From an uncultured Alphaproteobacteria bacterium (lineage in GTDB: Bacteria; Pseudomonadota; Alphaproteobacteria; RF32; CAG-239), in the NCBI GenBank assembly GCA_944393175.1, contig CALXZH010000032.1, positions 5,812 to 69,811 of the forward strand: a DNA stretch of 64,000 nucleotides. Direction: 5' to 3'. This document shows, in pieces, positions 13,855 to 43,791 of this stretch. The notes beneath the pieces were generated by a model. It searched no databases. It was not told the origin of the DNA and worked only from the letters and a program-made list of their open reading frames with translations. The first letter of the stretch is position 1; each line of letters opens with the position of its first letter. The position numbers and the translations under genes are program-made.

Positions 13855-14823
13855 TTATGTTACTTCGGTTACGGCACGCAGGTTTCCGTCGCGGTTAATT
13901 TGAACAACACGCAGTTTTCTGTGCATCTCTTTGATGGTCTTTTCTCTATCGATGGTCGGGTAACTATGCAAAATACGATCAACAAAAGCTTCATATGCCG
14001 CTTCAGAGCTCTCAGCGTGAATGGTGGCCAAGCAGTTATCGTGACCGGATCCCATCAACTCCCATAAGGCGCCGGCGTTGTTGGTGGAAATCTCACCGCC
14101 GATAATGGCATCAGGCGTAAAACGCACAACCAAGTCAATGATTTTTGAGTAGTCAAATTCGTTTGTTTGCTCCGTACGTGACATTACTATATGAACGCGG
14201 TTGGGGTGAGGAACCAGTAATTCTCGCGTATCTTCTATGGTGATAATTCTCTTATGAATATCCAAAATTTTAAGCAAGTTATTCAAAAATGTGGTTTTAC
14301 CTGTGGCCGTTGCACCGGAGACCAGAATATGATCCCCTCGTTTGATACTCAGCAACAGTCTCTCATAGGGGTCTTCCGGATCTTGTATATCTTTAAGAGG
14401 ATTGATTTTATGCAATTGTTCGCCTTGCTTTAATCCATAATCTTGCAGACCAAAAGCTACATCATCGCTATGGACACGTATGGTTAACGCAACGCCTCCG
14501 GTTAAGTCGTCTTGGTCATACATTACATTTCGCCCGCATATGGCTGAAAAACGGTGATCTCCTGGAATTGTCGCATATACTACCGGCGTACCTTGCACCG
14601 GGTCAAAGGGTAGTTCATAGGTGTTTGCTATAATGTAGAGCAAATCCGTCAGATAATCTTTGGTAAGTTTTTCATCTTTATACATTACCCAGGGGTAGGC
14701 TCGCTTTCCTCTTAAGCGCAGCCAAACTTGTCCTGAGCGATTTACCGCTACTTCTTCTATGTTGTCTTGATTATACCAATAAGCCAGCGGGCGCAACACA
14801 GATTCCAAAACCTTAAAACTCAT
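13855..14823 (-). CDS. virB11: VirB11-type T4SS traffic ATPase
   Basis: Walker A VSGATATGKTTFLN. VirB11/GspE-family His-box region GGEISTNNAGALWELMGSGHDNCLATIHAES. 322 aa. It is the last gene after virB10. Confidence 0.85.
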   Translation of the reverse strand: MSFKVLESVLRPLAYWYNQDNIEEVAVNRSGQVWLRLRGKRAYPWVMYKDEKLTKDYLTDLLYIIANTYELPFDPVQGTPVVYATIPGDHRFSAICGRNVMYDQDDLTGGVALTIRVHSDDVAFGLQDYGLKQGEQLHKINPLKDIQDPEDPYERLLLSIKRGDHILVSGATATGKTTFLNNLLKILDIHKRIITIEDTRELLVPHPNRVHIVMSRTEQTNEFDYSKIIDLVVRFTPDAIIGGEISTNNAGALWELMGSGHDNCLATIHAESSEAAYEAFVDRILHSYPTIDREKTIKEMHRKLRVVQINRDGNLRAVTEVT

Positions 14824-14835
14824 ATTTCTTCTCCT

Positions 14836-17800
14836 TTAGAACAATTGCGGCACGCTGCTGTCTGTGGTTGTTTTGCTGCTTGATGTCGCAGCGCCTGGCG
14901 TACTAGACGTTGCAAAAGACGGCGGAGGTGGCGGTGTGGCTCCGGTTGATGTGTTAGATATTAGCGCCGGAGGATTATTGCTTTGTTTTCCGGTGTTTGC
15001 AGGCTTATCGTCAATTAAGCTCGGCGTACTGCCTTTGGCTTCAACATCTATTCCCTGAGCCTCATAAACAACATTGCTGCCACCCGTCGGAGAACTTTCG
15101 CTCTTGCCCAGACTACGTTTATTTCTTTCCAATTCGCGTTTGCCGGTAACAACAGGGTCATCTATCAAGACGTCTTTTTTACCGCCGCCTCCTAATTCTT
15201 GCGGGTTTCTCTCACGCGTACGCATCCACAAATCAACATTTGGATATACAATTATGCGTGTACCGGCAGGAACATACGTCAGCGGACGAATATTGGTTTT
15301 ATCCGACAATATTTGTTCGAAAACTTGGTTCATTTGATTTAAGAAATTTTGTCTGGCATCGTTTGCTGCCTGTTGCTTTGGTGTTTCATTTACGTTGCCG
15401 CTATCCGTATCATCATCATCTGCCATGATATATGAAGTATAGCTGGTTAGGGCTGTGGTCATAATCGGCAAAGTATATTTCTTAAATAGTTGTTGATCCA
15501 AATATCCTAAGGCACCACCGCGGCCTTGAGCATCTCCGGTTATTCCGTTAAAGACAAATAACGAGCCATCCGGACGAATCAATCTTTCCCACGATATTTG
15601 TACTTTTGCAGATTGAGACGTGGTTTCAGAAGTTCCGGTTAAACTTCCTAAAGTGCCCATAATACGGCTACCTGCAGGAATAATAATTTTTCTGCCTTCT
15701 TCAGCGTATATGTTTCTTTCAACAAATGCCGTAACAGGTGTTGGGTTATTACTGTCAATCGAGCGGGCAATAACGGCGGGAATCGGCTTATCTGCAAAAA
15801 TCATTTCGCTTAAATCAACTCGCCAAGATGATATTGCCTTTTTAATACCTTGTTCATCCCAGTTTTTTTGCATGCCATCAAACGCATCCGGACTTATATT
15901 GCTGCTTATTTTGCCTACTTGCATATTGCTCCGGCGTTCTTGTTGTGCTGCGTCAAGCGCCATTGCTCTTTGAGGGTCATATCTTTCTCCCGGACCAAAG
16001 CCTCCTCCGGGGCCTAAATTTCCTCCGGGGCCTGTGCCGGTTCCATAGGCACCGCCTTGTCCGAATGTGCCGGCAGGAATAAACATATCTCCGGCTGAAG
16101 GTTTGGCTGTTTCTTCTATTCCTATCAATGCTCCATCGTCATCGATTACCAGTCCGTCGGGCATACGACGGCCTACAACCTTACCCTCTTTATTGACGAC
16201 ACTGCCGTCTTCCATTATTTCGCCTAAATATTCTCCATCCGGCGTTAGTGCTATACCAAGCGAACGACGATATTTTTCTGTCATTTCCGTTTCTTCGGGA
16301 GATAATCCGATTTCAGGCAATTTTCCCGGACGTTTATACCAACTTGGTTTTCTTACTTTGCCTATGACTTTGCCATTGGCATCGACAACTTCTCCATTGG
16401 CATTTACTTTACCAACGACCCGGCCGTTAGCATCTACAACAGTACCATCGGCTAAGACTCGACCGATTACATTGCCATTTTCATCAAAGGCCAAATTATC
16501 TACATTGGCTTTGCCTATGACTTTGCCATTGACATCGACAACTTCTCCATTGGCATTTACTCTGCCTATAACATTGCCGTTGGCATCTACAACAGTGCCA
16601 TCCGGCAAAACTCGACCTATAATATTGCCGTTAGCGTCATAAGCAAATTGCTCGGTTCCTGCGACGCCGATAACATTTCCATTGGCATCAACTATTTCTC
16701 CTTTTGCATTAACTTTGCCTATGACGTTTCCGTTAGCATCTACAACCGTACCATCCGGCAAAATTCGACCGATTACATTGCCTTTTGCATCATATGCTAA
16801 CTTTTCTTTACTTGTGACACCGATAACATTTCCGTTTGCATCTACAATCTCTCCGTTGGCATTTACTCTGCCTATGATATTGCCGTTAGCATCTACAACC
16901 GTACCATCCGGCAAAATTCGACCGATTACATTGCCATTTACGTCATATGCTAACTGTTCTTTACTTGCGACGCCGATAACATTTCCGTTGGCGTCTACAA
17001 TCTCTCCGTTGGCATTTACTCTGCCTATGACATTGCCGTTGGCATCTACAACCGTACCATCCGGCAAAATTCGACCGATTACATTGCCATTCATATCATA
17101 GGCCAGTCTGCCTTCTTGTTGAGGCGCTGTTATAGAACCTATGATATTGCCGTTAGCGTCTAAAATTTCTCCGTTTGGTCCGACTTTACCTATAACATTT
17201 CCATTTTCATCAACTACAGTCCCATCCGGTAATATCCGTCCGATAACATTGCCGTTGGCATCATAGGCTAATTTGGTACTTGCTAATTCTCCGATAACAT
17301 TTCCGTTCGAATCTACAACTTTGCCGTTTTGGACTCTGCCTATGATATTGCCATTTTCATCAACTACAGTCCCATCTGCATTCACATAGCCAATTAAATT
17401 GCCATTGGCATCATAAACTTTTTCGCGAACGACGACTTCACCGTAATATTGAAGCGGTTTGGCCGTTGCGATAACTCTGCCTTGAGAATCAATGATATTG
17501 CCGTTTTTAGTAATAGTTCCTAATACCATATTATTAGAATCAACCAATTCGCCTTTTAGGTTTAATTCTCCTAAAATGCGGTTGGCTTCATCCCGAATAT
17601 AGAAATCTCTATTGCCTCGACCCTTTAACTCATTGTTTTTATCAATTAAAAAGCCTTTGCTTAATCTGCCTAAATTTTGGTTGATAAACGATAGAATCGT
17701 GCCGTCTTTTTGAATAACGCCGATAACTTCATAGTCATTATCATAAATATAAAAATCATACAAAGCGTAACCAATTTTAGTATTATCTTTTAAGACGTTA

Positions 17801-42988: not shown

Positions 42989-43444
42989 TTATTTTCCACT
43001 GATTAAACTATTCGTTATCATCTCATCGGTGATAACTTCGCTATCGACCATGTAGTTTATTATTCCTGCTGTCGAAGCAATAACAAATAAGCCAATAATA
43101 ATGGCAACCAGCCATTTCCAGTTCATGGTGCCAAAAAAAGAACCAACCGCTATGGCAACAATGCCAAATCCGGAAACGGCATAAATAATTTCTCGCATAC
43201 CGCCAAAAATTTCTAACCCTTTGTTGGTTAAATCACTAAACAAAACTGTTTCGGCGGCAAAACAACTTGTTGCATATAAAATTGAAGAAATCGCAAAAAT
43301 TCCAAATATAACTGCTAACTTCTTTAAGTTTATATGCACCTTTGTTTCTCCTTGTAATAATTTTGATATAAAAAGGGAGAGGAATGACTGCTTATGTATG
43401 TTACTTGCCTTCATGTTTCTCTCCCTTTTGTCCATATATACCAA
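42989..43444 (-). CDS. virB2: VirB2/TrbC-like pilin paralogue
   Basis: A long leader followed by two hydrophobic helices and the conserved GFG...G.MNWKW core. The start may be an internal Met (MKASN...). Confidence 0.65.
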   Translation of the reverse strand: MVYMDKRERNMKASNIHKQSFLSLFISKLLQGETKVHINLKKLAVIFGIFAISSILYATSCFAAETVLFSDLTNKGLEIFGGMREIIYAVSGFGIVAIAVGSFFGTMNWKWLVAIIIGLFVIASTAGIINYMVDSEVITDEMITNSLISGK

Positions 43445-43452
43445 GTTAGTTA

Positions 43453-43791
43453 TTAGATATTACCAAATGTGGTTGTTAAGCCTGCTTCGGTTGAACCGGT
43501 TGCATATTCAACAATTGAACCTGCTGCAGCCAAAATTGCCAAACCAACAGCCAAACCTGCAAACCATTTCCAGTTTACTTTACCCAGAATTGCGGAGTAG
43601 GCAATACCTACCAAACCGAAACCACCCAAAATAAAGGTAATGGTTTTAACACTATCAAACACGTTACGGGTCTTGGTCTGCGCCTGTCCCATCAAGCTGG
43701 CAGCATCAGCCCAAGCATCTCCGCAGACACCCATTGCCAAAATCAATGTCAAGCAACAAAGTGTCAATATGTTCTTTTTAATAAATCGCAT
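43453..43791 (-). CDS. virB2: VirB2/TrbC-like pilin (112 aa), first gene of the virB operon
   Basis: RBS AAGGAG 7 nt upstream. Signal-like leader LTLCCLTLILAMGVCGDAWA. A hydrophobic hairpin with the GKVNWKW motif and a short C-terminal tail. Confidence 0.75.
   Translation of the reverse strand: MRFIKKNILTLCCLTLILAMGVCGDAWADAASLMGQAQTKTRNVFDSVKTITFILGGFGLVGIAYSAILGKVNWKWFAGLAVGLAILAAAGSIVEYATGSTEAGLTTTFGNI

Follow-up and report, generated by a model that had tools for sequence, protein, structure and literature searches.

Organization of the locus

The DNA analysed here, referred to as the window, is a stretch of 64,000 nt covering positions 5,812-69,811 of contig CALXZH010000032.1 (assembly GCA_944393175.1), from an uncultured alphaproteobacterium classified as RF32 / CAG-239. 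On its minus strand the listing of open reading frames (ORFs) contains a run of 16 co-directional genes, read from 43791 down to 13855, which includes, in this order, the VirB-type components of a type IV secretion system (T4SS): two VirB2 copies, VirB3, VirB4, VirB8, a VirB7-type lipoprotein, a second VirB8, VirB9, VirB10 and VirB11. The same core had been proposed in an earlier sequence-only reading of this DNA, and all its components were recovered where that reading had placed them. The close packing described there was also found, as 11 of the 15 junctions either overlap or do not exceed 16 nt, the remaining gaps measuring 48, 68, 116 and 117 nt. The VirB8-VirB7-VirB8-VirB9 block belongs to the same run, and is contiguous with VirB2-VirB4 on one side and with VirB10-VirB11 on the other.

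A hairpin is placed between the convergent ends of virB11 and of a plus-strand gene encoding a 241-aa protein. This organization supports the description of the 30-kb run as a putative complete, tightly packed VirB-type T4SS operon, confined to one strand and bounded by a terminator. When its satellite genes are included, the system spans about 55 kb. All features are reported in Table 1.

Table 1. Features of the T4SS locus and its surroundings, positions being counted from the first nucleotide of the window. Minus-strand genes are listed in the direction of reading.
Feature	Position	Strand	Size	Characteristics
VirB2, copy a	43453..43791	-	112 aa	PF04956 38.8 bits; signal peptide and two transmembrane (TM) segments
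VirB2, copy b	42989..43444	-	151 aa	PF04956 24 bits, under the Pfam cut-off
Secreted protein	39872..42940	-	1022 aa	Residues ~339-423 VirB2-like, between coiled-coil and Cys-rich extensions
VirB3	39384..39755	-	123 aa (ORF)	Probable true start 39674, giving 96 aa; 11-nt overlap with virB4
VirB4 ATPase	36962..39394	-	810 aa	TIGR00929 365 bits, E 9e-109; PF03135; Walker A GPTGQGKT
Secreted protein, putatively VirB5-derived	34761..36893	-	710 aa	N-terminal QWPTLD motif, coiled coil, Ser/Thr-rich middle
Secreted protein, putatively VirB5-derived	33917..34804	-	295 aa	Probable start 34759, giving 280 aa, an ordinary VirB5 size
Secreted protein, putatively VirB5-derived	32550..33920	-	456 aa	
Secreted accessory protein	27575..32539	-	1654 aa	Signal peptide, coiled coil, acidic and Ser-rich tracts, 78-nt tandem repeat
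VirB8, copy a	26801..27559	-	252 aa	PF04335 63.8 bits; NPIG motif retained
VirB7-type lipoprotein	26495..26683	-	62 aa	Between the VirB8 genes; LLSSC lipobox, SPCAC motif
VirB8, copy b	25748..26479	-	243 aa	PF04335 81.9 bits; NPVG motif
VirB9	24088..25731	-	547 aa	PF03524 40.3 bits, residues 79-327; SPOR 24.8 bits, residues 466-545
Bitopic protein	20168..24091	-	1307 aa	Between virB9 and virB10; beta-flower hairpins, PF21785 E 4e-89; TM residues 19-37
VirB10	14836..20205	-	1789 aa	TrbI domain PF03743 E 6e-34, residues 1469-1660; PF21785 E 3e-97
Tandem DNA array in virB10	16373..17105	-	153 nt x 4.8	82% matches; Tandem Repeats Finder score 881
VirB11 ATPase	13855..14823	-	322 aa	TIGR02788 E 8e-43
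Hairpin, likely bidirectional terminator	13815..13836	.		GC-rich; 9-bp stem, 5 of its pairs GC, with a T run after it
VirB6-like polytopic protein	261..2759	+	832 aa	About 6-8 hydrophobic segments; TrbL/VirB6 16 bits, E 0.01
VirB6-like protein	2749..6537	+	1262 aa	PF04610 23.9 bits, just under cut-off; TM cluster at residues 618-901
Double XRE-type helix-turn-helix (HTH) protein	6649..7677	+		PF01381 twice, E 9e-27; candidate regulator
Four syntenic genes without family match	7831..13799	+		1061-aa acidic repeat protein, 237-aa protein, 420-aa lipoprotein, 241-aa single-TM protein; convergent with virB11
Type IVb pilus cluster	44119..55797	+		Divergent from virB2; TcpQ-domain protein, secretin, PilO (PF06864), T2SSE ATPase, T2SSF, bundlin-like pilin, second PilT-like ATPase

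Core components and their plasmid relatives

The components recovered assign the system, as predicted from its proteins, to the P-type T4SS (VirB, or mating-pair-formation type T, MPF-T). Among solved structures VirB4 is matched by TrwK (E 3e-40), VirB11 is best matched by Brucella VirB11 (2gza, E 3e-17), and both VirB8 copies match, in profile searches, the VirB8 structures of Bartonella, Agrobacterium and Brucella. The five components of the sequence-only reading for which profile recovery was checked did not all fare alike: VirB8, VirB9 and VirB10 were recognized by Pfam, whereas the 123-aa VirB3 and the 62-aa VirB7-type protein gave no Pfam match at E≤10, and were recovered by hidden Markov models (HMMs) of their families, compared with plasmid relatives. 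The VirB3 model, built on the window sequence and its orthologs, detects the annotated VirB3 of a Microvirga plasmid (39.5 bits) and the hypothetical-protein genes preceding virB4 on Sphingosinicella (28.8 bits) and Erythrobacter (21.7 bits) plasmids; the protein contains two hydrophobic TM segments, and the median length of its orthologs is 96 aa. The VirB7-type model scores 43.4 bits against the small lipoproteins which precede VirB8 on the Microvirga and Erythrobacter plasmids, the SPCAC motif being common to them, and the protein is 41% identical to its counterpart in a chromosomal relative, L093. As for the pilins, VirB2 copy a is 37% identical to the annotated VirB2 of the Microvirga plasmid (E 5e-16), which is also matched by copy b (E 4e-14); copy b matches copy a with an E value of 9e-11.

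The closest annotated relatives of the system are modules found on plasmid pMVF16-3 of Microvirga sp. VF16 and on plasmids of Erythrobacter aureus and Sphingosinicella sp. BN140058, with identities of 35-39% for VirB4, 41% for VirB11 and 32% for VirB9, the last value referring to the Microvirga protein. VirB4 proteins of Ca. Paracaedimonas plasmids follow these three, at 30% identity. The plasmid genes are arranged in the order MobA/MobL, VirB2, VirB3, VirB4, a protein of about 250 aa, one of about 430 aa, a lipoprotein of about 60 aa, VirB8, VirB9, VirB10, VirB11 and VirD4, with one further 228-aa gene after the ~250-aa protein in Microvirga. The backbone order B2-B3-B4-B5-...-B7-B8-B9-B10-B11 is common to plasmids and window, with B5 putative in the latter; in both, VirB8 is preceded by the SPCAC lipoprotein and VirB9 is long (432-550 aa). 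Unlike the window, the plasmid modules extend over about 15 kb only, are made of single-copy genes, with MobA/MobL upstream and VirD4 downstream, and encode a VirB10 of 529-590 aa, with neither beta-flower repeats nor a SPOR domain. The system is thus predicted to belong to the same T4SS subfamily as these compact plasmid conjugation modules, from which it differs in that its linkage to a relaxase and a coupling protein is gone. As side observations, many VirD4 relatives of the Microvirga-type plasmids (P0313, P0316, P0326 and others) are 1040-1200 aa long and contain intein/homing-endonuclease domains (PF05203, PF05204, PF14528), and some related VirB4 proteins (P0132, P0133, P0138), 1095-1255 aa long, are matched in two separate stretches and may hold inteins.

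Enlarged and multiplied components

Several genes of the run are oversized, and the lengths originally read for VirB10 (1789 aa), VirB9 (547 aa) and three accessory proteins (1022, 1307 and 1654 aa) were found to be exact. The gigantism is real and has identifiable causes, namely repeats, a SPOR domain, an embedded pilin and hydrolase fusions.

Residues ~47-1400 of VirB10, about 1,350 aa, form a nearly unbroken series of 17-residue beta-hairpins with the pattern G-x-x-I-G/D-x-x-G, corresponding to the beta-flower families (Pfam PF21785). The protein is organized as an N-terminal anchor, the hairpin repeats, a Gly/Pro linker, the TrbI domain and a Ser/Thr/Pro-rich tail. The 153-nt period of the DNA array in virB10 corresponds to three 51-nt hairpin units, and its repeat families are shared with the neighboring 1307-aa gene. 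The product of the latter is a paralogue of the VirB10 repeat region without TrbI, sharing 41% identity with VirB10 residues 765-1362 along 639 aa; it is retained as an 1146-aa gene in locus L087, from a related species. All of the VirB10 relatives listed, at least 120, combine beta-flower and TrbI regions over 1526-1711 aa, some on contigs of 1.9-2.0 Mb; those that carry a name in public records are labelled either "hypothetical protein" or "5-fold beta-flower protein". A second tandem repeat in coding DNA, of 78 nt x 2.2 (89% matches), is located at 31406-31574 within the 1654-aa gene; this repeat and the virB10 array are possible substrates for recombinational length variation.

The extra length of VirB9 is accounted for by a Gly/Ser/Asn-rich low-complexity linker and by a C-terminal SPOR (peptidoglycan-binding) domain, and this tail is nearly identical in another species. 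The 1022-aa secreted protein contains a pilin segment, similar to both VirB2 copies (BLASTP E ~6e-11) and scoring 37 bits, with its family HMM, against Microvirga VirB2; its orthologs range from about 350 to 2058 aa.

Between virB4 and the first virB8 four genes code for secreted proteins. Pfam comparison of 86 orthologs of these four proteins revealed coiled-coil families only, and profile searches against the PDB gave no match to TraC or TrwJ. Three of the families, of 710, 295 and 456 aa, are nevertheless selective, within a reference set of 32 proteins, for the ~250-aa protein which follows VirB4 on the plasmids, nothing else in the set falling under E 0.05. The 710-aa family matches the Erythrobacter protein (24.9 bits), chiefly through its N-terminal segment; the 456-aa family matches the Erythrobacter (30.5 bits) and Sphingosinicella (28.8 bits) proteins, by its N-terminal and C-terminal segments each; the 295-aa family aligns over the full length, although weakly, to the Sphingosinicella protein in the VirB5 position (14.6 bits, E 3e-5). 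The Erythrobacter protein itself passes the VirB5/TrbJ profile PF07996 (30.3 bits against a cut-off of 24.7). We consider with moderate confidence that the three proteins are VirB5-derived. An AlphaFold 2 model of the 280-aa candidate, obtained from a 22-sequence alignment, is all-helical and of low confidence (predicted local distance difference test score 47). Direct paralogy of the 710-aa and 456-aa families found no support, as hhalign aligned only the signal peptide and the first motif.

The fourth protein, of 1654 aa, gave no Pfam or NCBIfam match. It is syntenic in 74 of 80 related loci, with identities of 25-64%, and its N-terminus has a very weak VirB5-like score of 8 bits. Taken as a whole, every part of the system predicted to span the envelope or to reach the surface appears either multiplied or enlarged: three pilin-type proteins, three putatively VirB5-derived proteins, four VirB6 (see below), a VirB8 pair, a VirB9 with SPOR domain, and a beta-flower VirB10 with its paralogue.

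The VirB6 array and its wall-degrading domains

The two VirB6-like genes that had been noticed on the opposite strand, at 261-6537, indeed encode polytopic proteins, which are paralogous to each other (E 2e-13). In a nearly identical contig, L083, which continues for 5.9 kb past the left end of the window, two more VirB6 paralogues of 921 and 443 aa are found directly upstream, the former related to the 1262-aa protein (E 9e-39) and endowed with a sub-threshold TrbL match of its own. The tandem VirB6-type genes are therefore four (921, 443, 832 and 1262 aa), the first two read in L083 and the last two in the window. Their predicted identity derives from the polytopic nature of the paralogues and from three independent TrbL matches, all sub-threshold, of 16-24 bits. 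Further upstream L083 encodes a 280-aa protein and a lipoprotein, and its terminal positions 1-75 are the reverse complement of the 5' end of a 16S rRNA gene, which places the VirB6 array beside an rRNA operon.

The N-terminus of the 1262-aa protein contains an M23 peptidase domain (PF01551, E 9e-19) and a VgrG3-C-like, lysozyme-type domain (PF21277, E 1e-11), and this M23-VirB6 gene is kept in the related loci L087/L088. No SLT-type domain, expected for a VirB1 lytic transglycosylase, was found by Pfam on any ORF of the window, and the two hydrolase domains may substitute for VirB1.

These domains are also relevant to a different function, that of a contact-dependent antibacterial or predatory T4SS, similar to the X-T4SS or to the rvh system of basal Rickettsiales, injecting wall-degrading toxins into gut neighbors. 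The M23 peptidase, the VgrG3-C-like lysozyme and the SPOR domains all reside within the machine, and the gut is a dense bacterial habitat. Fused as they are to a polytopic VirB6, however, the hydrolases more likely act on the wall of the producer, in a VirB1-like role. Killing by the X-T4SS of Xanthomonadales needs VirD4 and XVIPCD effectors; no VirD4 was found in the window, XVIPCD effectors not having been specifically searched for, and no toxin-immunity pairs were recognized. The carrier, on the other side, is genome-reduced and said to depend on other cells (PMC13155120), and killing through rvh has been proposed for basal free-living Rickettsiales (PMC10002696). On balance we regard an antibacterial function as unlikely.

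Distribution and conservation

The distribution of the system was evaluated by a scan of one genome per GTDB species, which returned 277 stretches containing VirB4 relatives; identities were derived from the best 80 of them. VirB4 proteins 80-97% identical to that of the window occur in at least 80 species-representative genomes (the best 80 of 277, from 80 loci). According to the record titles, the carriers are uncultured gut Alphaproteobacteria, "Azospirillum sp." (51_20), Ca. Scatocola and CAG:495, from human, chicken, mouse and ruminant sets of metagenome-assembled genomes (MAGs). We take the clade formed by these MAGs to correspond to the GTDB order RF32. The members of this order have been characterized as gut specialists, uncultured and reduced in genome (fewer than 2000 genes), which depend on other cells, and some of them are reported to have reduced biosynthesis (PMC13155120). 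A 391-kb record entitled 'Lactobacillaceae bacterium' (L035, JAISVX010000001.1) also carries the operon, with a VirB4 83% identical; its binning or its label is probably wrong.

The operon is syntenic in the related loci, Ca. Scatocola and "Azospirillum sp." among them. Median identities in these loci are 83% for VirB4, 74% for VirB7, 67% for VirB3 and 58-66% for VirB8, against 28-39% for the secreted accessory proteins, which also vary largely in length; a conserved core accompanied by divergent secreted accessory parts is the pattern expected if the latter are exposed. A species whose VirB10 is only 54% identical keeps the whole ~55-kb layout, with the M23-VirB6 gene, the HTH gene and the block of four genes convergent with virB11 all in place. 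The window is uniform in GC content, its right flank is made of housekeeping genes, and the single tRNA gene is 18 kb distant. The even composition, the housekeeping and rRNA flanks and the synteny indicate a fixed chromosomal feature rather than a mobile island; synteny and breadth suggest vertical inheritance.

Outside the clade, the next-closest VirB4 clusters are 51%, 41% and 38% identical by phmmer (50%, 40% and 36% by tblastn), and consist of small chromosomal islets among housekeeping genes. The first includes B3-B4 and a separate VirB11 (61% identical), on a contig with 29% GC, near an ankyrin-repeat protein; the second, B3-B4-B7-B8-B9, lies between lon and an aspartate kinase gene; the third, B3-B4, between lpxD and dut. 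With the nearest relatives being chromosomal islets, the subfamily seems to have settled repeatedly in alphaproteobacterial chromosomes of host-associated appearance, while only the gut clade has the genes in a contiguous and expanded form. Named sources of the nearest VirB4 relatives are unclassified Alphaproteobacteria and Sphingorhabdus MAGs, and the Microvirga, Erythrobacter, Sphingosinicella and Paracaedimonas plasmids. The closest relative outside the clade, L091 (296-1288, 6129-7094), is a contig with 29% GC, obtained from a gut metagenome; its VirB4 and VirB11 are 50% and 61% identical, its vir genes are scattered, and its ankyrin-repeat protein is 330 aa long, which suggests a more reduced, possibly intracellular sister lineage.

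Lack of DNA-transfer genes near the system

Neither the window nor the 5.9 kb on its left contains a DNA-transfer module. The statement of the sequence-only reading that 64 kb contain neither VirD4 nor a relaxase held in three tests: Pfam detected no domain of VirD4 or other type IV coupling protein (T4CP), of relaxase or of integrase on any large ORF of the window; tblastn with Microvirga VirD4 and MobA found no match in the window or in the 80 related loci; and the ATPases with a Walker A motif in the window are four, VirB4, VirB11 and two pilus ATPases. The 5.9 kb up to the 16S rRNA gene, available through L083, contain no T4CP, relaxase or integrase, and the virD4/relaxase pair which might have been located just upstream is not there, the space being occupied by the lipoprotein, the 280-aa protein and the two VirB6 paralogues described above. 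Replication genes are likewise missing from both the window and these 5.9 kb. In a search of a protein database with Microvirga VirD4, the 120 best matches, down to 481 bits, all scored higher than would be expected for a cognate of the clade. From the content of the window and of its left extension, no search having been aimed at an oriT, we infer that the system is not a self-transmissible conjugation element.

The genes could still form the mating-pair-formation module of a conjugative or mobilizing element, with the coupling protein, relaxase and origin of transfer (oriT) located elsewhere in the genome. The closest plasmid relatives are conjugation modules provided with MobA/MobL and VirD4, all pilus-biogenesis genes are present, and the adjoining type IVb pilus recalls the thin pilus of IncI plasmids. 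Such a split arrangement is contrasted by the lack of T4CP, relaxase, integrase and replication genes noted above, by the fixed site beside the rRNA operon, with synteny across species down to 54% VirB10 identity, and by the extent of VirB4 conservation in at least 80 species-representative genomes, which fits a core rather than a mobile gene. We judge it quite improbable.

The lack of a T4CP would also suit a ComB-type system for DNA uptake or release, feeding nucleotides or DNA to a genome-reduced cell. VirB10, which is also matched by model NF038091, reaches 111 bits with the ComB10 model and slightly less, 96 bits, with that of VirB10. To our knowledge, however, ComB systems lack VirB11 and VirB5, while here VirB11 is 90% identical between species (in locus L087) and VirB5-like and pilin genes are multiplied; no linkage to ComEC or DprA was seen in the window. 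Although the clade has been reported to include members with reduced biosynthesis (PMC13155120), this possibility appears very improbable.

Duplication of VirB8 and relation to the rvh systems

The sequence-only reading had likened the VirB8 duplication to that of the rvh systems of Rickettsiales. The resemblance in gene order stands, as the order B8-B7-B8-B9-B10-B11 is that found in Rickettsia islet C, virB9a-B8a-B7-B8b-B9b-B10-B11-D4 (PMC2653234). The rvh systems are, in addition, chromosomal, alphaproteobacterial and of the P-type, with VirB8 duplicated around VirB7 and several oversized VirB6 in tandem. Membership in the rvh group, in contrast, was not supported. The rvh hallmarks are the duplication of B4, B8 and B9, a multicopy B6 and the lack of VirB5 (PMC10002696), and the rvh genes are split into islets, with RvhD4 beside B11; in the window the genes are contiguous, VirB5-derived genes are probably present, and neither a second VirB4 or VirB9 nor an rvhD4 after virB11 was found. 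The rvh VirB8 paralogues are at most 19% identical, and the degenerate RvhB8-II is without NPXG (PMC4676284), whereas the two copies described here are 30% identical and both keep the motif, as NPIG and NPVG. Neither VirB8 profile matches R. typhi RvhB8-II (4O3V) at E≤10, which is weak evidence, RvhB8-II being known as aberrant.

The two copies differ in their relationship to single-copy VirB8 proteins. Copy b scores 111 bits against Microvirga VirB8 and 119 bits against that of L093, while copy a reaches only 60-72 bits with the VirB8 of relatives (72 with Microvirga), compared to 114 bits with copy b. Copy b is the ortholog of the single VirB8 of the relatives, and copy a an extra, faster-evolving paralogue. 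A neighbor-joining tree was built on 234 columns, with 100 bootstraps, from the two copies and the VirB8 of Microvirga, Erythrobacter, Sphingosinicella and Paracaedimonas, the last used as root. Copies a and b are joined in one clade (100/100), with Microvirga as sister (94%) and Erythrobacter and Sphingosinicella next. Since the single-copy relatives are excluded from the clade, the duplication occurred inside this lineage, after its split from the single-copy systems; long-branch attraction would draw copy a in the opposite direction.

True homology with rvh would require that VirB8 duplication and VirB6 proliferation be ancestral, and would imply a machine injecting effectors into a eukaryotic host. 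The identical gene order, the four large VirB6 paralogues in tandem, the alphaproteobacterial nature of the carrier and the scattered vir islets of the nearest non-plasmid relatives, one of them beside an ankyrin-repeat protein, agree with it. The lineage-specific VirB8 duplication, the probable VirB5-derived genes, and a window with no D4 and with a single B4 and a single B9 argue that the system is not an rvh member; homology is the most improbable of the alternatives considered here, and the resemblance is best read as convergence.

Neighboring genes

The genes on the plus strand adjacent to the operon are in part conserved. L087 has the HTH gene at the corresponding place, with 87% identity. 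The first of the four genes convergent with virB11 (7831-11016) encodes a 1061-aa protein without signal peptide, extremely acidic, with a 12-lysine run and, close to the C-terminus, 5-6 tandem copies of DQDWEWDYEEVPEEQASASEN; in relatives it is 788 to 1088 aa long. It has no family match, and may be a candidate substrate or effector. The 237-, 420- and 241-aa genes (11092-13799) are 63-78% identical between species, a conservation higher than that of the secreted accessory proteins, for which reason a role as machine parts or regulators is probable. The 420-aa lipoprotein was evaluated as a secretin relative and rejected, having no similarity to the secretin of the window and no Pfam match.

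Synteny extends to the first gene of the type IVb pilus cluster in 51 of the 80 related loci, and no prepilin peptidase was recognized within the cluster. Just past it, a VWA-domain protein, a PP2C phosphatase and a Ser/Thr protein kinase are encoded in a row (57068-59953, plus strand).

Discussion

The locus is a strongly derived form of a known kind of T4SS, in an ecologically widespread uncultured clade. Several of its features can be compared with those of other T4SSs. The Cag T4SS of H. pylori comprises a giant, repeat-bearing VirB10 homologue, CagY, and a large VirB9 homologue, CagX, together with the coupling protein Cag-beta and the effector CagA. It shares with the window a VirB10 of about 1,800-1,900 aa, expanded by internal repeats which are repeated in DNA too, an enlarged VirB9 and many accessory proteins; the repeats of the window, however, are beta-flower hairpins, unrelated in sequence to those of CagY, and the Pfam family of CagX was matched only as generic VirB9; no Cag-specific component was found, no search having been aimed at one. 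In the Trw system of Bartonella, an adhesion organelle operating without a coupling protein, genes of the VirB2, VirB5, VirB6 and VirB7 types have been multiplied. The same combination of T4CP loss and multiplied pilus-associated genes (predicted as three VirB2-, three VirB5- and four VirB6-type) is found here, within the scope of the window, along with an origin from a conjugation system; but Trw is of R388-type origin and made of short genes in tandem arrays, while the copies of the window are few, divergent and enlarged, and VirB8 and VirB10 are affected as well. The VirB system of Brucella and the Ptl system of Bordetella, which export proteins without VirD4, resemble the window in being VirB-type operons with no VirD4 nearby; they differ in being compact, with 9-12 genes of normal size and no duplications. 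In Agrobacterium, too, VirB1-B11 build a pilus without VirD4.

The reading that we favor, as a probable though not firmly established one, is that of a chromosomally fixed, vertically inherited VirB/MPF-T T4SS of a gut alphaproteobacterial clade, serving as a non-conjugative organelle for contact, adhesion or delivery. That it is an effector-translocating or host-interaction machine rather than a conjugation system, as originally suggested, is plausible. VirB4 and VirB11 would power the assembly of an enlarged complex spanning the periplasm and held to peptidoglycan by the SPOR domain, perhaps also by the beta-flower repeats; beta-flower modules would come by the hundreds from VirB10 and its 1307-aa paralogue, and the cell wall would be dealt with by the SPOR and hydrolase domains. 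An exposed, variable pilus or adhesin layer touching the target may be formed by VirB2, the VirB5-like proteins and the accessory proteins, all of which evolve fast, and the complex, along with the adjacent type IVb pilus, may mediate contact with another cell, be it host epithelium, a protist or a bacterium. By analogy with Brucella VirB, Ptl and Trw, proteins could be delivered without a dedicated coupling protein.

Some points weigh against this interpretation. No substrate, effector or target was identified in this analysis, and VirD4, a relaxase, or a second VirB4 or VirB9 could lie elsewhere in the genome, of about 2 Mb. Vertical inheritance is deduced from synteny and breadth, and transcription of the run as one unit is presumed. 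The VirB5 assignment derives from weak, transitive profile matches of 15-30 bits against 32 proteins and fails in Pfam and PDB searches, and the VirB6 matches are below the Pfam cut-offs.

In a wider and more tentative view, which we consider possible but more doubtful than the reading just given, an order-level clade of gut Alphaproteobacteria carries a T4SS without coupling protein as a core organelle, paired with a type IVb pilus, for a life attached to, or at the expense of, other cells, the rvh-, Cag- and Trw-like features being independent convergences. If this is true, general rules may emerge for the conversion of conjugation machines into machines for interaction with hosts or prey. 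The locus offers an independent, datable replay of the odd VirB8 and VirB6 duplications of Rickettsiales, and a second case, after CagY, of a repeat-expanded VirB10, here derived from the recently defined beta-flower fold, along with unusual fusions such as a pilin inside a 1,000-aa protein, a VirB6 joined to cell-wall hydrolases and a VirB9 joined to SPOR. In the literature we found no paper tying the gut clade to type IV secretion, and no published description of the locus. Its carriers, widespread in animal and human guts and uncultured, have been described only as small-genome "specialists"; since the machine occupies about 55 kb of some 2 Mb, approximately 3% of the genome, and its ATPases are 80-97% identical in at least 80 genomes, it is a strong candidate for the key determinant of their lifestyle.

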